A DNA stretch of 64,000 nucleotides from Minisyncoccota bacterium (GTDB lineage: Bacteria; Patescibacteriota; Minisyncoccia; Phycocordibacterales; Phycocordibacteraceae): positions 259,355-323,354 of the forward strand of contig DASPLI010000001.1 in the NCBI GenBank assembly GCA_035627655.1, given 5' to 3'. Positions 2,235 through 60,877 of this stretch are shown piece after piece; within the stretch, counting starts at the first letter, position 1, and each line of letters begins with the position of its first letter. Below the pieces are notes generated by a model. It searched no databases, had not been told where the DNA came from, and saw only the letters and a program-made list of their open reading frames with translations. The translations under genes were made by a program, and so were the position numbers.

Positions 2235-3086
2235 ATGCGCCTCAAGAAATGGCACTACGTAATCTTGCTTATCGTAGTGCTTGCGATCAACGTACTGATT
2301 GCATTTCTCATTTTCTATACGCCAGACAAGCTTCGTGTTTCGTTTCTCGACGTCGGACAGGGAGATGCCATTTTGATCCAGGGACCGACTGGCATCGACA
2401 TGTTGGTAGATGCAGGTAAAGACCGCTCCGCGGTCCGGGAGTTGGGGAAGCAGCTGGGACCGCTCGACCGAACAATCGATATTGTTGTTGCAACACATCC
2501 AGATGCAGATCATATTGGCGGGCTTCCGGCAGTATTTGCGGGCTACCGCGTCCGTGCGTACCTCTCTCCATCTATAAAAAACGATACCGATCCAACGTAC
2601 GCGCTTGAAAGTGCGGTGGCACGCGAACAGGGGGTACGAATAGTGCCGGCACGCCGCGGTAGCAGAGTCGAACTTGGCGGCGGTGCGTACGCTGACATCC
2701 TCTTTCCAGATCGAGACGTAGATACTATTGAAACCAACACCGGTTCTGTCGTGCTGCGGGTGGTCTATGGCGACACCTCATTTCTCCTTACCGGAGACGC
2801 GCCTGATGATGTTGAGTCGTGGCTCGTCACGCTTGATGAGGGATCGATCAAAAGTGACGTGCTAAAAGCAGGACATCACGGATCTCGCACCTCGACCAGT
2901 GCTGCGTTTCTTGCAGCAGTTGACCCGAGCATCGTGGTTATTTCCGCGGGCAAAGACAATAGCTACGGTCACCCGCATCAGGAAGTAGTTGAGCGCATCC
3001 TCGCCTCCGGTGCAATTCTTGTTTCAACCATCGAAAAGGGAACCATAGTGTTTGAAAGCGATGGGGAAACCGTCATGGAGCGATAG
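2235..3086 (+). CDS. ComEC/Rec2-type metallo-beta-lactamase-fold hydrolase (stand-alone MBL domain with N-terminal TM anchor)
   Basis: Motifs DVGQGDA, HPDADHIGG, KAGHHGS, YGHP typical of ComEC C-terminal MBL domain. Confidence 0.7.
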   Translation: MRLKKWHYVILLIVVLAINVLIAFLIFYTPDKLRVSFLDVGQGDAILIQGPTGIDMLVDAGKDRSAVRELGKQLGPLDRTIDIVVATHPDADHIGGLPAVFAGYRVRAYLSPSIKNDTDPTYALESAVAREQGVRIVPARRGSRVELGGGAYADILFPDRDVDTIETNTGSVVLRVVYGDTSFLLTGDAPDDVESWLVTLDEGSIKSDVLKAGHHGSRTSTSAAFLAAVDPSIVVISAGKDNSYGHPHQEVVERILASGAILVSTIEKGTIVFESDGETVMER

Positions 3087-5614: not shown

Positions 5615-5730
5615 ATGACGGCAAACTCGAACGGCGCGCCTCTGGTGCGCCGTTTTGTTTTTATACCCACCCCCGTCTTGGCGTTCCACGATAAGTTTTA
5701 TACTTAAAGGGTTAGTACTAACGTTTCATC

Positions 5731-6120: not shown

Positions 6121-6130
6121 CGTTCCATAC

Positions 6131-6165
6131 AAAAACAGCCCGCACGTGCGGGCTGTTTTTGTTTT
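6131..6165. terminator. Bidirectional intrinsic terminator (CAGCCCGCACGTGCGGGCTG + TTTTTGTTTT)
   Basis: Perfect 8-bp GC stem with T-run; also marks left edge of low-GC island. Confidence 0.8.
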
Positions 6166-6169
6166 CAGG

Positions 6170-6529
6170 TTATCGGTTTCGTAAGCTGGTCCAAGTAATT
6201 ACCACTATGCTGATGATGGAGAAGAGTCCGGCCATCAGCCACGTAACCATTTCTTTGGTAACCGAATAAAGCGGCATCCAGGTGTTGTTTGAATCAGGAG
6301 TAACTGCGATTAGAACAATTGAAAGTGGAAGCCACCACGCAGCAAGCTTTGCCCACGCCCCAAAGACCCCCTTCTTCTTTAGGAAAACTAGCAGAAGAGC
6401 AGGTATAAAAGTTGCTAAGCCAAGAATGTAGAGCGGTTCGCTTAACCAGGGATCATAAAGATCAAAATAATCAAAGATGTACCCAAGCGCACTTATTAAG
6501 ATTGTGGCGATTAGAATTTTTAATCTCAT
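6170..6529 (-). CDS. Membrane protein, hypothetical (within low-GC island)
   Basis: 119 aa, 3-4 TM helices, AT-rich codon usage. Confidence 0.45.
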   Translation of the reverse strand: MRLKILIATILISALGYIFDYFDLYDPWLSEPLYILGLATFIPALLLVFLKKKGVFGAWAKLAAWWLPLSIVLIAVTPDSNNTWMPLYSVTKEMVTWLMAGLFSIISIVVITWTSLRNR

Positions 6530-6534
6530 ATTTC

Positions 6535-9315
6535 CTAGAATATATTTTTGAACCAGGTAAGGATTTCTTTCATAATACTGTATAAGAGTCTAGGTAAATC
6601 GAAGAACCAATTTTGTGAATTTAGGGAGTCGTATATAGAGGCGGTTTGTGTACGTACCGAGCTAACCACTTCCTCGGTCGTTGTAGGTCCAGTCTCTAAT
6701 TCCATAGTGGTTGTTTGTGATACAGGTATCAGCCAGTTGAAAAATTCTGGAGTTGGAGGAGGTGTACTGGTGATAGTCGGGATTAAGTATTCGGGGGCGT
6801 CTTTCTCATCACTCTTTACAACTCGATTCGACCCTCTGCTGGAAGAAGATCCCGTTATTTCCTGAGGTTCGTAAGCGACAGTTTCCCCAGATGTCATAGC
6901 AATAAGAATCTCTGTTTCTCCGTCTCCATTTTCATCAATAGCGAGTGGTGTTGCATCTTCAATTCCATTGCTGATTGCAAAAGTTGCAAACGTATTAGGA
7001 GAAACAGGAAGGTTGGTTACAGTGCTTGTCTGGGTCACGTTCCCATCCTCCATCTCTTGAATATCGAGAGAAAAGGTACCTTCGTCTAATCCGTGTAACT
7101 CAACTCGGTACTCTGCTCCAGCCGGCGCAATAATGTATTGAACCTCTCCAAATCTTCCGTAGTGCGAGTCTGGAACATTTTCCTCTTCTGACCCATCGTC
7201 AACTGGTCCTGTTCGGTTCCCCCTGTTGTCGTGAAGTTCGAGAGTAAGAGGAGAGTGAAGGAAAAATATAAGTTTCTTAGTTTCTTGCTGTTGAATAACT
7301 GGAGAATCTTTTATAAATACAACTTCTCTGTCTTCTTGAAGAAGGAGATTGGAGATAAATGTTTGAACATCATCCATTTCCAAGAAGTTACCGTGGTCTC
7401 TGTCGGTATTGTCTTTATTGTGGTCCCGTATATTTACCCAAAAATTTTGTATGTTTAATATCTCTTCCTCCATCATAAGAGCACTGGCAACTGGAACAAC
7501 CCCATCACCGTCCTCTATAAATACTGGACGGTACTTTTTATTGCAGGACGTTCCACATTCCTCGTAGAACTCAATTCCAGAAATCGTGTCTTCACCCCAG
7601 CCAGCTATTTGATAAAGAGTGACTTCTCCAGGAGGAGTCCAGCTGTCTATTGAAGTATGTATCTGCTCTGCATAGCTGAGTAATGTTGAGTGAAGAACAT
7701 TTGCATTCTCGAAGTCAGAAGTGTCAGGCTTTGAACGCCCTCCCTCAGCTGCCTGAAGGAAGTCTTTAAGTTCAGCAAAGTTATCAATAGTTTCCCCGTA
7801 CATGTTTCGTTCAGCACTGTATGTTTCACTAAACCGGGCAACAGGATGCGTTCCACTATTCTTAGTGGATTCAAAATAGCGCTCTGTCGGGAGAAGGTGA
7901 TATCCCATGGGAGAGCGCTCTGCAAAATCGCGAGCAGTCGCTGGAGACACTAAAAATGGAAACCACCACGGCAGCCCTTCTTTGTAGCCGAACAAAAGAG
8001 CTCCAATAGCCTGCGGAGCACCGCTTTGTGGGACACCTACAAAAATCACATTATCGACAAGTTCTTCGGTTGCTTCAGGGCCAAGTTTCTCGAAAAGAGC
8101 TTTGGCAACCAATCCGCCATTTGAATGGGCAATGATAGTAACTTTCCCGGTCTTTGAGTTTGCAGCTAGTGAACGAAGTGTTTGTTCAATGTAAGGAGTA
8201 GATGTTGCTTCGCCGTAAAATATCCTTCCGTCGCGTTCAGCGCCCGTTTCAACAATGTCCTCAAGTGAGAGTCGCCAGTCATACGCTACTGGACGCCATT
8301 CGTTTATAGCTCCGTTCACTTGGAGATCATCCATATGCTCAATGAAGTCATCGTAGATATCGATGAACGACATGACTGAATCAATGACGTCGCCTTCTTT
8401 TGTATAAATCGCCTCCTGACTCTTCCCGTCTTCGTTTAGCAACAGCAGATTGATATCGTCTTCTCCTAATGGGTCCCACACTTTTTCTTCTGATCCGTTA
8501 TTGATATAGAGGCGACTCCCTTTAATTCCTGGTAAGAAAAGAACGTTTGATGCGCAAGGCGCTTCGCACACGGGTTCCGATTCTTCAAAATCACTAGCGG
8601 TTACCTGTAAGAATATCTCTGTCTCATTTGCGCCTTTTGTATAAATAACCCCATTAGTCCACCGCGGGTCTCCATTGACGCGGTACACAAGTGAAATTTC
8701 ATATTGCGCACCAGCTTCAAGCACGCAGTCGCTTTCTGGATGATCGAAAGTAATGAGCGCAACTGTCGACGCATCTCCAACCGGGATAGCGGCATAGTTT
8801 TCATGAGCATATCCGCTACCGTTTTCTTGTGCACTTAAGAGCCAACAAATATGCTCATGGGTTTCTGGCGACTTCAGTTCAATGGAAAGCCAGTTACCAG
8901 AAATGCGCGGCTCAGACGTGATGGTATTTTGCGCGAGATACAAACGCACTTTTGAAACATGACCGCTTGCGAGAGCGGTGTATATAGGACGAGGAGTAAG
9001 TTCGTGATATTCACCTCCAGCTGCTCCCGAGAATTCAATTTCATAAGAAGAATCGTCTTGCACTAGCAATAAGTCAGAGTCAGATCCAAGCGTAAGTATC
9101 TCAAAAGAAGATTCCGCTTCTGGAATTTCTCCAAGCGGAATATTTTCTGAGGAAATTTCTATTTCTGGAAGTGTTGGATCCTCAGGTTGAGAAATTATCT
9201 CGGGAAGTACTTTTTCAAGCGACCCGCCCAGCACCTCTTCCTCGGCGTGGGTAGTAATACCAAGTACCGGCAGCAACAGGGCCACCACTAGCGAGAGATA
9301 TGCTGCCCGCAGCAT
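6535..9315 (-). CDS. Large secreted alpha/beta-hydrolase (lipase/esterase-like, GxSxG = AHSNGG) with signal peptide and extended beta-rich N-terminal region
   Basis: 926 aa; signal peptide MLRAAYLSLVVALLLPVLGITTHA; lipase nucleophile elbow TIIAHSNGGLVA; Thr/Pro-rich C-terminal tail; low GC. Confidence 0.6.
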   Translation of the reverse strand: MLRAAYLSLVVALLLPVLGITTHAEEEVLGGSLEKVLPEIISQPEDPTLPEIEISSENIPLGEIPEAESSFEILTLGSDSDLLLVQDDSSYEIEFSGAAGGEYHELTPRPIYTALASGHVSKVRLYLAQNTITSEPRISGNWLSIELKSPETHEHICWLLSAQENGSGYAHENYAAIPVGDASTVALITFDHPESDCVLEAGAQYEISLVYRVNGDPRWTNGVIYTKGANETEIFLQVTASDFEESEPVCEAPCASNVLFLPGIKGSRLYINNGSEEKVWDPLGEDDINLLLLNEDGKSQEAIYTKEGDVIDSVMSFIDIYDDFIEHMDDLQVNGAINEWRPVAYDWRLSLEDIVETGAERDGRIFYGEATSTPYIEQTLRSLAANSKTGKVTIIAHSNGGLVAKALFEKLGPEATEELVDNVIFVGVPQSGAPQAIGALLFGYKEGLPWWFPFLVSPATARDFAERSPMGYHLLPTERYFESTKNSGTHPVARFSETYSAERNMYGETIDNFAELKDFLQAAEGGRSKPDTSDFENANVLHSTLLSYAEQIHTSIDSWTPPGEVTLYQIAGWGEDTISGIEFYEECGTSCNKKYRPVFIEDGDGVVPVASALMMEEEILNIQNFWVNIRDHNKDNTDRDHGNFLEMDDVQTFISNLLLQEDREVVFIKDSPVIQQQETKKLIFFLHSPLTLELHDNRGNRTGPVDDGSEEENVPDSHYGRFGEVQYIIAPAGAEYRVELHGLDEGTFSLDIQEMEDGNVTQTSTVTNLPVSPNTFATFAISNGIEDATPLAIDENGDGETEILIAMTSGETVAYEPQEITGSSSSRGSNRVVKSDEKDAPEYLIPTITSTPPPTPEFFNWLIPVSQTTTMELETGPTTTEEVVSSVRTQTASIYDSLNSQNWFFDLPRLLYSIMKEILTWFKNIF

Positions 9316-9364
9316 ATGGCTCTAGTATATAGCCCTAAAGCAACTTTAGCGGTAGGCTCATTGC

Positions 9365-10078
9365 ATGGAAGTCTGGCAGATCGTCGGTGTTGTGATGGTC
9401 CTTACGTACATTGCGTATTGGGGCGGGAATCTCTTTTTCAAAGCACGTGCCGCTCGTGCGCTCATGAGCGACGAGCGTCCGTTTACAGACGACACGGGAA
9501 ATTACGAGAAGACACTTCTTGTCTTGGGAGACTCAACCGGCTCAGGCGTTGGCGCAGCAGCTCCGGAAGAATCGGTTGCCGGACGACTCGCTACCTATAT
9601 AGGAGCAACGCATGTCGAGAACTATGCGGAATCCGGAGCAGAGGTGCGCGACCTGCCAGAGCAAATCGCAAAAGCGAAGCTTCCTCGGTACGATCTTATT
9701 CTCGTTCACATCGGCGGCAACGACATTCTTTGGTTCCATAACGCCAAAGCAACCGCTCATCGGCTCAAAGAGGTACTCGGAACCCTTCCGGACGCTGGCC
9801 AGGTTCTCCTAGTAACTGCGGGCAATGTCGGGGGCGCAACCCTCTTCCCACCAACCTTCCGGTACCTCCATATGTGGACGACCCTCCAGTTCCATAAGGA
9901 ATTTACGAAGGCGGCAAGCGTAGTCGGCGCGACCTACGTAAACCTCTACGAGGCGCCAAATGTCGATCCGTTTATGGACGAGCCCGAGCGCTACCTTGCC
10001 GAAGATGGCCTCCATCCCTCCTCAGAAGGGTACCGGCTCTGGTTTGAGAAGGTGAAGGCCGCCCTTAGGGCCATTTAG
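9365..10078 (+). CDS. SGNH/GDSL-family hydrolase with N-terminal TM anchor
   Basis: GDS(T)G block LGDSTGSG, GGNDI, DGLHP (DxxH) blocks. Confidence 0.7.
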   Translation: MEVWQIVGVVMVLTYIAYWGGNLFFKARAARALMSDERPFTDDTGNYEKTLLVLGDSTGSGVGAAAPEESVAGRLATYIGATHVENYAESGAEVRDLPEQIAKAKLPRYDLILVHIGGNDILWFHNAKATAHRLKEVLGTLPDAGQVLLVTAGNVGGATLFPPTFRYLHMWTTLQFHKEFTKAASVVGATYVNLYEAPNVDPFMDEPERYLAEDGLHPSSEGYRLWFEKVKAALRAI

Positions 10079-49740: not shown

Positions 49741-50436
49741 ATGACTATCCGCGCACTTCTGGGAACCAAGCACGATGTCCTCGAGCAGACCTATGTTGCC
49801 CTTGCCATGCTCGTGGTGACGTTTCTCTACGAGGGCATCACCGCTTACGCCATTCCTGGCTTTACGTTCAACATCTATGAAGCAGTCGGTACCTGGACAG
49901 GTCTCGTCTGTGTCTGGCTTTCACGGACGCGTAACATCCTGTGCTGGCCGTGGGGGATTGTGAGTGCGCTCTCGCTCGGGTTCTTCTTCTCCCAGATTGG
50001 TCTTCCTGGGCAGCAGTGGCTCAACTGGGTCTACTTCATGATCATTCAGCTGTGGGCATGGCCGCACTGGGCCTTTGGCGGAGCGGATAAGACCGAACTT
50101 CCGGTAACAGAGCTCTCCTGGAAAGGGAAGGTGCTGACAGTTCTCGCGATCCTCGCTGGTACCGCACTCGTCTACTACGCGATCGGCTACTTTGCGCCAG
50201 GTTCCTTCCATCCGCTGCTCGACGCTCTGGTCGTCGCCTCAAGCGTGGTTGCGCAGTACCTGCTTGGTAAGAAGAAGGTGGAGAGTTGGATTCTCTGGCT
50301 GGGACCGGTGAACCTGGTTTCGATCGTGCTCTTTGCGATGGCAGGCGCGTATACAGTTGCCGCCCTCTACCTCGCATTCTTTATCCATGCGATCTTCGCG
50401 CTTGGTGCGTGGACGAAGGCGAAGAGCCATGTATAA
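49741..50436 (+). CDS. pnuC: Nicotinamide riboside transporter PnuC
   Basis: Blocks YEAVGTWTGLVCVWLS, QIGL...WLNW, VESWILWLGPVNLVSIVLFAMAGAY align with E. coli PnuC. Confidence 0.85.
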   Translation: MTIRALLGTKHDVLEQTYVALAMLVVTFLYEGITAYAIPGFTFNIYEAVGTWTGLVCVWLSRTRNILCWPWGIVSALSLGFFFSQIGLPGQQWLNWVYFMIIQLWAWPHWAFGGADKTELPVTELSWKGKVLTVLAILAGTALVYYAIGYFAPGSFHPLLDALVVASSVVAQYLLGKKKVESWILWLGPVNLVSIVLFAMAGAYTVAALYLAFFIHAIFALGAWTKAKSHV

Positions 50437-55806: not shown

Positions 55807-55814
55807 TATATATA

Positions 55815-56172
55815 GGTGGAGGTGGGGAGAATTGAACTCCCGTCCGAATCCGTCTTTGAGAGCGAGTCTACGACGCGTAGTCCTGATTAGGTGCTAGGGC
55901 AGGGTGCGAGGAATCGGGACGAAACCACTCCTGCCTGATCCCGATTATCTAGGCATTCCGTTCGGGAAGACGGATGCCGATCTCGTAGAAGATTCCGCCC
56001 ATATCAACCGCTACGAGAACCGGAAGATATGAACGTCGCGAAGGCGAAAACCCGGAGGTTACGCGTAGGCGAACGCAAAGTCCTTCATACCGAAGTACGG
56101 GGACTTAACGCTTGCAAAGGTATTCTTGGCAAGTTTGGGTGTGTACGTTGGTAAAGCGGTCAGCACACCTCC
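55815..56172 (-). ncRNA. ssrA: tmRNA (SsrA)
   Basis: tRNA-like 3' end on minus strand ...GGACGGGAGUUCAAUUCUCCCCACCUCCACC (T-arm + acceptor, cf. E. coli ...GGACGCGGGUUCAACUCCCGCCAGCUCCACCA); 5' GGAGGUG pairs 7/7 with 3' CACCUCC; adjacent to smpB; candidate tag ORF ...(M)KDFAFAYA-UAA. Confidence 0.7.
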
Positions 56173-56265
56173 GCTGCGTCGCACGTCTCTCAAAGAACAG
56201 ACCGTCAAAGCCGGTCACCCCCAGGAAGAAGACGATACACCGATCATCTGCTTACGGCGAGCTTC

Positions 56266-59994: not shown

Positions 59995-60803
59995 TCCGAA
60001 CGATCGTCGCGTTTCTTGTGCTTGCGCTCGTAACAGGAGGGGTACTGGTGGTCTTGTTTCGCCAGCCGTCCAACGAAAAGACTTGGAAGGACTATCTCGC
60101 CGTACCAACAAACGTGACCTTCTCCGAAGACGGTGAGTCTGTGACGCTTAGCAGCGTGCGCGACTGGACCTACAACGAGGAAGAAGCGGTCTCGCGCACA
60201 TACGTGGACCGCACGTATGACCTCGGTTCCGTTTCAGGGCTCTGGTTTGTCGTCGAGCCGTTCCCGGACATGCCATCGTTCGGGCACACCTTGCTGGTAT
60301 TTGAGTTTACGGACGCGCCGCCAATCGCGTTCTCCGTCGAAGCGCTGCTTGAGGAAGGGGAGAACTACTCAGCATGGAAAGGACTCTTCAACGAATATGA
60401 GCTTGCCTATACGTGGGGCACGGAGCGAGACTTCCTTACGCGCCGGGCGGTGATGCTTGGCCATGAGATTTACCGGTACCAGCTGGCCGTCTCGCCAGAA
60501 GTCGCACGCGAAGTATTCGTTTCTTTCCTCAAGGGAACGCAGACGCTCGCTGAGCGCCCCGTCTTTTACAACACCCTCCTTCATAACTGCACGAACGAAC
60601 TCGCACATCTCATAAACGAACGCACGCCAGGTGCGCTTCCGTGGGATTGGTCGCGCGTGTTTACGGGCACGGCTGATCAGTATCTGTATAAGCTTGGATA
60701 CATCACCGGATCTTCTTTCAAAGAGGCGCAGGCAGCCGCACGCATCACTGAGCGCGTACGGGAACTTTCCTTGGATCCGGCATTCTCTGAGAAACTTCGT
60801 TAG
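59991..60803 (+). CDS. DUF4105 (Lnb N-terminal-like) domain protein with N-terminal TM anchor
   Basis: PSFGHTLLVFEF ... YNTLLHNCTNE pattern. Confidence 0.5.
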   Translation: MIRTIVAFLVLALVTGGVLVVLFRQPSNEKTWKDYLAVPTNVTFSEDGESVTLSSVRDWTYNEEEAVSRTYVDRTYDLGSVSGLWFVVEPFPDMPSFGHTLLVFEFTDAPPIAFSVEALLEEGENYSAWKGLFNEYELAYTWGTERDFLTRRAVMLGHEIYRYQLAVSPEVAREVFVSFLKGTQTLAERPVFYNTLLHNCTNELAHLINERTPGALPWDWSRVFTGTADQYLYKLGYITGSSFKEAQAAARITERVRELSLDPAFSEKLR

Positions 60804-60877
60804 TCCACCCGCTTGGACTCGAACCAAGGACCGCCGAGGTATAAGCTCGGAGCTCTAACCAACTGAGCTACGGGTGG
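60804..60877 (-). tRNA. tRNA with anticodon UAU (reads AUA; tRNA-Ile(UAU)-like), CCA not encoded
   Basis: rc = CCACCCG UA GCUC AGUUGGUUAG AGC U CCGAG CUUAUAC CUCGG CGGUC CUUGG UUCGAGU CCAAG CGGGUGG A; all four stems pair. Confidence 0.75.

Follow-up and report, generated by a model that had tools for sequence, protein, structure and literature searches.

The stretch between positions 6131 and 9320 of the window analysed here (64 kb of contig DASPLI010000001.1, from a metagenome-assembled genome (MAG) belonging to the CPR (Candidate Phyla Radiation)/Patescibacteria) is an AT-rich operon of two genes, which encode a 926-aa lipase-like protein and a 119-aa membrane protein. The original prediction on this DNA, made from the letters alone, had read the compositional contrast as horizontal acquisition. 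The results presented here favour another origin, with a probability of roughly 0.55: the stretch would be one ancestral transcription unit of the Paceibacteria genome, not an inserted island, and its AT-richness would be a persistent, gene-specific compositional state maintained in place. Horizontal acquisition is disfavoured because the same operon is found at the same locus in relatives, the trees of the lipase and of its flanks are congruent and the hallmarks of mobility are missing. The state is taken as persistent, and not as a fading trace, because the operon of the nearest relative is equally AT-rich although its silent sites have been randomised.

Composition and conservation of the operon

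The GC content of 6131-9320 is 0.447, versus 0.568 across the remaining 64-kb window. It is the lowest 3.19-kb window of the 64 kb, and all other 1-kb windows have a GC content of at least 0.49. The contrast announced by the original prediction (42-44% versus about 59%) is therefore real, but its size was slightly overstated (44.7% versus 56.8% as measured). Two minus-strand open reading frames (ORFs) fill the stretch, as had been predicted, and the small gene begins 5 nt past the lipase stop:

6535-9315, minus strand: 926-aa gene (lipase-like protein); GC 0.448; GC at first, second and third codon positions (GC1/GC2/GC3) 0.559/0.399/0.387
6170-6529, minus strand: 119-aa gene (small membrane protein); GC3 0.458

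In the neighbouring genes GC1/GC2/GC3 are roughly 0.53-0.65/0.35-0.47/0.59-0.84. The GC3 of the 926-aa gene is the minimum of the 71 ORFs of the window (z = -3.3, mean about 0.65), so that the advised calculation of windowed GC and GC3 singles out this stretch by both measures. The deficit is even along the whole length of the gene, whose GC3 falls beneath the intergenic GC of the window (0.527). A/T-ending codons are raised for every amino acid in comparison with the rest of the window (ATA 0.31 versus 0.07, TTA 0.17 versus 0.02, AGA 0.17 versus 0.05 and AAA 0.69 versus 0.24), and codon usage resembles that of a genome of about 42-44% GC at every amino acid. The GC-normalised dinucleotide distance (delta*) of the stretch is 0.096, a value that none of 109 equally large host windows reaches; this signature did not help to tell native from foreign DNA, since lipase genes deviate from their own flanks family-wide (mean 0.066).

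Several simple causes were considered and set aside. Amino-acid composition does not account for the deficit because this lies in GC3, GC1 and GC2 being near the neighbours' values. The original prediction had named two observations that would speak against acquisition, namely a skew due to amino-acid composition alone and its sharing by homologues in relatives; the former does not hold here, but homologues in relatives do share the low GC3. Fast protein evolution was rejected, as the genes encoding NlpC/P60 (50% identity) and a 197-aa protein (33%) have normal GC3. Regarding head-on orientation, other minus-strand genes have normal GC3, and across loci the correlation between offset and co-orientation is weak (rho 0.26, p = 0.03).

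Two side observations concern composition elsewhere in the window. The only transfer RNA (tRNA) gene in the 64 kb (60803-60877, minus strand) is a tRNA-Ile with anticodon UAU, which reads directly the ATA codon that makes up 31% of lipase Ile codons versus 7% elsewhere. Besides, a 111-aa ORF (50042-50377, minus strand) with a GC3 of 0.43 and a GC2 of 0.70 is probably a non-coding shadow frame rather than a second low-GC gene.

The closest homologue of the lipase (P0002, 62% identical over the core) lies on an independent Logan contig (L001, from SRR29476917), in which the gene order NlpC/P60-S7-S12-GDSL-lipase-small gene-132 aa-167 aa-M50-L28-...-metallo-beta-lactamase (MBL) is collinear with the window. 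The lipases of the window and L001 are mutual closest relatives among 5.8 billion proteins. The next closest homologues, P0003 (L082) and P0005 (L084), are syntenic too, as is a further locus reached via its GDSL gene (L085), and of 80 loci taken from genomes that represent species, about 18 are likewise flanked by S7/S12 at one end and by M50/L28/MBL at the opposite end. In the window, the operon is placed between GDSL/rpsL-rpsG and M50/rpmB. No empty site was found: the orthologous operon occupies the site in L001, L082, L084, L085 and the approximately 18 more distant syntenic loci, and L086 is ambiguous for occupancy, since a nuclease adjoins GDSL there and the contig ends. More than 1,287 homologues exist, and within the best 120 every named one comes from Patescibacteria.

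Hallmarks of mobility were sought around the stretch. The repeat finder gave no flanking direct-repeat pair, a feature that the original prediction had proposed to look for, and no tRNA bounds the stretch, the lone tRNA of the window being the one mentioned above. Integrase or mobility genes are missing nearby, where the neighbours are GDSL, rpsL, rpsG, M50 and genes for small membrane proteins. A scan of viral contigs with the protein found no relatives and no phage-borne copies, and a scan of Joint Genome Institute (JGI) metagenome contigs with the single protein found no relatives either.

The lipase has also diverged together with its surroundings. Between the window and L001, identity is 69-99% for the flank proteins, except for two fast-evolving genes, and 62% for the lipase core. 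In a comparison of 16 syntenic loci, lipase divergence is about 2.5 times that of the flanks (median ratio 2.48), and the lipase/flank distance ratios of the window's nearest pairs (2.17 and 2.26) are typical of the family. Flank tree and lipase tree both give the topology (window, L001), L082, in 98% and 99% of bootstraps, respectively; the family-wide neighbour-joining tree is weakly resolved, with a support of 0.53 for the syntenic clade, which includes the window. Replacement from the non-syntenic low-GC genomes that give the closest pairwise matches was also considered and is unsupported, the truly closest homologues (P0002, P0003 and P0005) being syntenic.

The AT-richness itself is shared by the nearest relatives, to different degrees:

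Window: lipase GC3 0.387; flank GC3 0.59-0.84
L001: lipase GC3 0.379, small gene 0.452; flank GC3 0.57-0.73 (MBL 0.43)
L082: lipase GC3 0.52; flank GC3 about 0.63
L084: lipase GC3 0.43; flank GC3 0.51-0.71
L085: lipase GC3 0.555; flank GC3 0.72-0.745

Lipase GC3 is under that of the flanks in 82% of 71 family loci (mean offset -0.05; Wilcoxon p = 1e-8), and the mean offset in syntenic loci is -0.09. The lipase genes of the window and L001 were compared at the four-fold sites of their shared residues, where identity is 28.3% versus 27.2% expected from composition (n = 233); as identity matches this expectation, the silent sites of the lipase are fully randomised between both copies. The GC content at four-fold sites (GC4) is nevertheless 0.33 and 0.37 in the window and L001 copies, respectively, versus 0.52-0.80 in the flanks. 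Under the F81 model, a single ancestral import followed by amelioration needs a negative ancestral GC, and this result stands even if residual identity is set to its upper 97.5% bound and even with the family-typical equilibrium as target. A single old transfer, now fading, is thus excluded, because the randomised orthologues remain equally AT-rich. Moreover, the core GC1+2 is 0.475 in both lipase genes; it fits the prediction from the gene's own GC3 (z = -0.3) and falls below the host prediction (z = -1.9 and -1.6), so the AT-rich regime is long-standing. A milder gene-specific depression is seen in the MBL-fold gene, with a lowish GC3 of 0.53 in the window (2235-3086, plus strand), 0.43 in L001 (8683-9534) and 0.59 in L082.

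Origin of the compositional anomaly

Maintenance in place is supported by the synteny, by the co-divergence, by the identical equilibrium values in two lineages and by a small negative offset that is present even in low-GC hosts. Two causes may be proposed for it. In the favoured one, the GC-raising force of the lineage (biased gene conversion or selection) would spare a divergent surface-protein operon; alternatively, rare A/T-ending codons would be selected to throttle a lipase that is hazardous to the cell producing it.

A number of observations weigh against this explanation. The GC3 deficit is an outlier even within the family: the offsets of the window (-0.25) and L001 (-0.23) have z values of -3.7 and -3.3 against the regression through the other syntenic loci, in which L082 is ordinary, and the window lipase shows the largest deficit with respect to its flanks of 76 loci, only its nearest orthologue being similar. 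As the deficit is outlying in these two and milder in L082 and L085 (GC3 0.52-0.56), a lineage-specific event must be assumed. Other fast-evolving genes and other minus-strand genes of the window have normal GC3, so that neither fast evolution nor orientation alone explains the low value.

The remaining unfavourable points count at the same time for a different explanation, a tentative but serious one, in which the cassette formed by the lipase and the small gene has been replaced by alleles of lower-GC relatives through recombination in the conserved flanks. This swapping, possibly repeated and independent in the lineages of the window and L001, would be a within-family transfer at a fixed locus and not the arrival of a new gene, and the low GC would be the signature of the donors. 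It agrees with codon usage like that of a genome of about 42-44% GC and with a GC3 below the host intergenic value of 0.527, where simple relaxation to host neutrality predicts otherwise. It also agrees with the silent divergence of the lipase between the window and L001, which exceeds that of the flanks (excess identity 0.011 versus about 0.11; z about 2.6) and fits a deeper coalescence of the alleles. Exchange of the cassette does occur elsewhere in the family, because cassette and flanks are decoupled in the pairs L002/L004 and L003/L062, and L086 carries a different low-GC3 secreted nuclease (GC3 0.33) adjoining GDSL at the same junction. Further points in favour of swapping are the sharp boundaries at the operon edges, the dinucleotide signature outside all host windows (though lipases deviate from flanks family-wide), the "host" GC3 of about 0.37-0.39 that is deduced alike from GC1+2 and from GC3, and the slope of the regression of gene GC3 on flank GC3, which is 0.8 and therefore below 1.

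On the other hand, since the alleles are saturated at silent sites and yet equally AT-rich, swapping requires two separate recent, unameliorated imports. The imported alleles would have to be each other's nearest relatives, and the next closest ones (L082, L085 and L084) are syntenic too and reside in high-GC hosts. The enzyme tree equals the flank tree, there is no inflation of the distance ratio, and a donor is not known. Finally, the gene is slightly below its flanks even in the lowest-GC hosts, so some gene-specific AT bias exists without transfer.

The decoupled pairs deserve description in their own right. L002 (9065-12759) and L004 (1905-5341) come from two nearly identical genomes, with a four-fold identity of 0.82-0.96 in the flanks; their lipases are 80% identical at the amino-acid level with a four-fold identity of 0.55, and their small genes 56% and 0.37, respectively. 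L003/L062 is the reverse case, in which the lipase is more similar than the flanks.

A comparable situation is found in enterobacteria, where low-GC O-antigen and capsule cassettes at fixed loci stay AT-rich between housekeeping genes, and a similar replacement has been proposed for them. Both those cassettes and the lipase operon are surface-related, occupy a conserved locus and are AT-rich across lineages, and in both the histories of cassette and flanks can decouple. They differ in that the lipase operon consists of two genes for one enzyme instead of a biosynthetic cluster and in that its nearest alleles co-diverge with the flanks, unlike O-antigen and capsule cassettes.

The reading of the original prediction, a recently acquired island that brings a new lipase from an unrelated low-GC donor, is very improbable. 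The GC content (44.7% versus 56.8%), the sharp edges and the atypical codon usage and dinucleotides are what suggest it, but the nearest relatives and about 20 more distant genomes have the same operon at this locus, the best 120 of more than 1,287 homologues belong to Patescibacteria wherever they are named, the lipase tree is congruent with the flanks, and the stretch lacks integrase, tRNA and flanking repeats, with no phage-borne copies found. An assembly artefact, in which mis-joining at conserved flanks brought DNA of a lower-GC organism into the MAG contig, is hardly credible, because the independent L001 assembly from another sample repeats both arrangement and GC3 contrast with a different sequence and the edges lie exactly at a terminator and a start codon.

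The lipase-like protein, its membrane partner and the surrounding locus

The product of the large gene (identical to VEB18_01435 of the source MAG, a Candidatus Paceibacterota genome, on a contig of 742,741 bp) is, on the grounds of sequence and structural model, a predicted exported serine hydrolase of the LCAT/LPLA2 type with an intact triad. Its features are as follows, all of them on the minus strand:

aa 1-24, 9244-9315, minus strand: predicted Sec-type signal peptide, MLRAAYLSLVVALLLPVLGITTHA; single N-terminal hydrophobic segment; helix 2-18
aa 84-240, 8596-9066, minus strand: N-terminal beta-rich domain; strands, predicted local distance difference test (pLDDT) 40-80; poorly conserved
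aa 250-660, 7336-8568, minus strand: catalytic LCAT/LPLA2-like alpha/beta-hydrolase domain; pLDDT about 90
aa 257-270, minus strand: motif NVLFLPGIKGSRLY of the catalytic domain
aa 345-349, minus strand: motif YDWRL of the catalytic domain
aa 396-401, minus strand: AHSNGG, with nucleophile Ser398 at nt 8122-8124
nt 7504-7506, minus strand: Asp604 of GDGVVP
nt 7393-7395, minus strand: His641 of DHGN
aa 680-815, 6871-7278, minus strand: conserved beta-sandwich domain, FFLHSPLTLEL...GTFSLDIQE; pLDDT about 90; invariant F684, L686-L690, Y719 and G720
aa 820-902, 6610-6858, minus strand: disordered Thr/Ser/Pro-rich stalk; pLDDT below 50; T 17%, S 16%, P 10%
aa 903-925, 6541-6609, minus strand: C-terminal amphipathic helix, WFFDLPRLLYSIMKEILTWFKNI; pLDDT 62-85

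The Pfam LCAT family (PF02450) is matched with E = 1.3e-14 and 54.6 bits (cut-off 21), residues 321-641 aligning on positions 66-385 of the 392 of the profile, and PF02450 is precomputed for all 120 listed homologues, the best 120 of more than 1,287 database members. From this family 42 sequences were aligned, in which S398 (AHSNGG), D604 (GDGVVP) and H641 (DHGN) are invariant and the motifs PGIKGSRLY and YDWRL can be recognised. NCBIfam gave no model for either the 926-aa or the 119-aa protein. A sequence-only search of the PDB found no match with the family profile and just weak lipase matches with the core alone, so a fold search was needed. An AlphaFold2 model built on the homologue alignment (mean pLDDT 71.9) was compared with the PDB by Foldseek; the eleven matches at E values of at most 1e-3 were all LPLA2 or LCAT (including LPLA2 4x97, 4x92, 4x90 and 4x95, and LCAT 5bv7, 5txf, 4x96, 6mvd, 4xx1 and 4xwg), with E values from 1e-10 to 4e-6 and target TM-scores of 0.62-0.69 over about 375 aa. 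In an hhalign comparison with human LCAT, YDWRL was aligned and S398 fell on Ser181.

Most of the architecture described by the original prediction was recovered. The signal-peptide-bearing alpha/beta hydrolase with an AHSNGG elbow proved to be of the LCAT/LPLA2 type (54.6 bits in Pfam, Foldseek E = 1e-10 and an invariant triad); among the relationships suggested for checking (PGAP1-like, LCAT-like or lipase class 2), LCAT/LPLA2 is the one that Pfam and Foldseek support. The extended N-terminal beta-rich region corresponds to aa 84-240 of the AlphaFold2 model, the Thr/Pro-rich C-terminal tail to aa 820-902 (17% Thr, 16% Ser and 10% Pro), and the expression "adhesin-enzyme fusion" is a fair description of the whole.

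Outside the catalytic domain the protein is more variable. Even against the nearest orthologue, residues 1-96 do not align, the alignment beginning at about aa 91-97, and homologues bear beta-helix or Ig-like modules at the N-terminal position (PF13229, PF05048 and PF16403); aa 84-240 may be a module of target recognition or adhesion. Signal-peptide cleavage would take place after THA, and the model has disordered, low-confidence linkers at aa 18-101 and 822-902. Weak Foldseek matches to carbohydrate-binding modules (CBM) or Ig-like folds (CBM3a, CBM32 and DUF4425, E about 5e-3) probably correspond to the beta-sandwich domain. The C-terminal helix has a hydrophobic moment of 0.68, top of all 909 windows of 18 residues, and comes after the tail motif TQTASxYD...VYNGL...LKKFF, conserved in most of the family; it could be an in-plane anchor to the membrane or the surface. 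Related to this, two mutually exclusive C-terminal tails have been observed in the lipases of the family (L001-L081), both followed by the small membrane gene: the amphipathic helix after QTASxYDASQQP (...VYNGLxxxWxxLKKFF), and an acidic stretch followed by RPxKxxLPGMVIPYxxTEKGSxxIxY. These may be CPR-specific surface-sorting signals.

The window protein has the catalytic fold in common with LPLA2/PLA2G15 and LCAT (PF02450; Foldseek E 1e-10 to 4e-6, TM-score 0.62-0.69), together with the motifs PGxxGSxL, YDWR, (G/A)HSxG and GDxxV and the Ser-Asp-His triad. It is bacterial and 926 aa long, LPLA2 and LCAT being of about 400 aa and about 15% identical to it, and it adds the variable N-terminal beta domain, the beta-sandwich, the Thr/Ser/Pro stalk and the amphipathic helix. 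Unlike LPLA2 and LCAT, it is accompanied by a membrane protein as operon partner. Within the Patescibacteria family annotated as "lipase/acyltransferase domain-containing protein" it is a member, 40-62% identical over the core; like the others, it possesses the family's invariant residues, beta-sandwich and tail motif, and a small membrane gene lies downstream. Its N-terminal domain, the largest GC3 deficit and a partner without the Cys-pair loop are its own.

The 119-aa partner is the product of the operon's second gene, and four transmembrane helices are predicted in it, which agrees with the small membrane protein that had been foreseen. It has no match in Pfam or NCBIfam, and a word-indexed homologue search with it returned the self-match only. 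Its family was gathered from the ORFs downstream of the lipase genes (alignment A2): 64 of 81 family loci have, immediately after the lipase (-19 to +29 nt), an ORF that is 80 aa or longer, and so both genes form a conserved pair. These proteins, still unnamed as a family, usually have 130-150 aa and three to five helices. The window copy is about 20 aa shorter than its relatives and is without the first external loop, which carries a conserved Cys pair in L001 and most family members.

The operon is delimited by the following elements:

6129-6162, both strands: bidirectional intrinsic terminator; perfect 17+17-nt palindrome ACAAAAACAGCCCGCAC/GTGCGGGCTGTTTTTGT, 100% complementary, with A5/T5 arms
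9316-9364: divergent intergenic region of 49 nt shared with the GDSL gene; presumed promoters; upper low-GC edge
9365-10078, plus strand: SGNH/GDSL hydrolase of 237 aa with an N-terminal hydrophobic segment; normal GC3 (0.61), outside the low-GC stretch

The edges of the low-GC stretch fall sharply at those of the operon, with the terminator on one side and the start codon on the other. The palindrome was missed by the terminator scan and recovered by folding and the repeat finder, its folding energies being -27.5 and -26.5 kcal/mol on the two strands (z = -7.0 and -6.2); the strong bidirectional terminator of the original prediction thus exists, at about -27 kcal/mol on each strand. It separates the convergent 129-aa gene (plus strand) from the operon (minus strand) and coincides with the lower low-GC edge. 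Another terminator-like hairpin (5629-5655, plus strand), which has 12 pairs (8 being G-C) and a T-run after them, lies 3' of a 171-aa gene and just upstream of the 129-aa gene. In L001, L082 and L085, the closest relatives, GDSL and lipase genes likewise form a divergent pair, and homologues of GDSL are annotated as lysophospholipase L1-like in some sources.

The surroundings of the GDSL gene vary among relatives. In L086 (118-960 of CAZTMV010000015.1, GCA_964615225.1) a secreted staphylococcal-nuclease-like protein with an Excalibur-like C-terminus adjoins GDSL (68% identical); its gene has a GC3 of 0.33 versus 0.65-0.72 in the flanks; neither the window nor the other loci have a homologue of it, and 117 nt beyond it the contig stops. 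The GDSL junction may be a hotspot for low-GC genes of secreted enzymes. Between rpsL and GDSL, L082 (1470-6411), L086 (1982-8159) and L085 (3572-7573) contain genes for a CAP-domain protein and a surface protein of 1,300-1,700 aa (Big_13, DUF4114 or SpaA-like), both absent from the window and L001, where GDSL abuts rpsL. This gap constitutes a second variable surface-protein slot of the neighbourhood.

Regarding RNA genes, Rfam has no family within the low-GC stretch. It gives a full-length transfer-messenger RNA (tmRNA) at 55814-56222 (minus strand, 94.8 bits), and ARAGORN reports one tRNA and no tmRNA in the same window; it may be an unusual or permuted CPR tmRNA.

Proposed function and biological meaning

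It is plausible that the lipase is a host-lipid harvesting enzyme. The protein would be exported by Sec and held at the cell surface by the Thr/Ser/Pro stalk and the C-terminal amphipathic helix. The fast-evolving N-terminal beta domain and the beta-sandwich would aim it at its target, the variable N-terminus giving specificity, and the enzyme would take acyl chains off the phospholipids in the membrane of a neighbour or host, or transfer them. The resulting lysolipids and fatty acids would supply a cell unable to make its own, and the lyso-products may in turn be substrates of the GDSL hydrolase next to it. Lipid synthesis is missing in CPR bacteria, and cells of CPR size are enriched in lysolipids, with phospholipase A suggested as their source (PMC7242380). 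A lysophospholipase acquired by horizontal gene transfer has been noted in a Paceibacteria MAG (PMC12455944). The literature search found no paper describing the LCAT-like family in CPR.

An alternative function, which is considered unlikely and is compatible with any origin of the operon, is that of an offensive membrane-damaging effector against host or competitor cells, with the four-helix protein as immunity or handling factor and the rare codons holding low the expression of a dangerous protein. Attack and nutrient harvest are not mutually exclusive. The tight and consistent pairing with the small membrane protein and the strong enrichment of rare codons (ATA, TTA and AGA) favour this function, and for Patescibacteria it has been proposed that phospholipases compromise the envelope of the host (PMC11665869). 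The lipase has, besides, a weak similarity (E = 0.32) to PDB entry 4r1d. This entry is the effector Tle4, and the Tle/Tli pairs of the type VI secretion system (T6SS) likewise consist of a GxSxG-type lipase and an adjacent small partner gene. Nevertheless, secretion-system genes are missing nearby, and T6SS components adjoin neither the window locus nor the syntenic loci examined. Unlike T6SS Tle effectors, the window enzyme has a predicted Sec signal peptide and surface tether, and the C-terminal tether suggests a cell-bound and not an injected enzyme. The partner is a polytopic membrane protein, whereas Tli is a periplasmic immunity protein, and it has no conserved catalytic or binding motif, the window copy lacking even the Cys loop of the family.

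Returning to harvesting, a more ambitious proposal, doubtful as a whole, combines both questions: the operon would be vertically inherited and actively kept AT-rich, and the lipase, the four-helix partner and GDSL would form the lysolipid-harvesting machinery of lipid-auxotrophic Patescibacteria. Two causes could keep it in this state. Rare A/T-ending codons or an AT-rich transcript would throttle or gate a self-hazardous surface phospholipase; alternatively, the operon would escape a recombination-linked GC-raising force, in which case its silent sites would read out the true mutational equilibrium of the lineage.

For the scanning of genomes these results are a caution, as the look of a textbook island (GC, codons, dinucleotides and sharp edges) comes here from an old, syntenic and co-diverging operon, and a compositional anomaly can persist without recent transfer. 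They also offer a natural experiment on the determinants of bacterial GC content (mutation bias, biased gene conversion and selection), because orthologues randomised at silent sites hold the same AT-rich composition in GC-rich genomes. The protein itself adds a new member to a large branch of the LCAT/LPLA2 family in Patescibacteria that is annotated in databases and experimentally uncharacterised. What remains of interest is that an operon inherited vertically shows a persistent AT bias at its silent sites, and that the family is a candidate for host-lipid harvesting. For CPR biology, a widespread and putatively surface-tethered LCAT/LPLA2-like enzyme, with its membrane partner and, in this clade, a GDSL neighbour, constitutes a concrete and testable candidate for that role.

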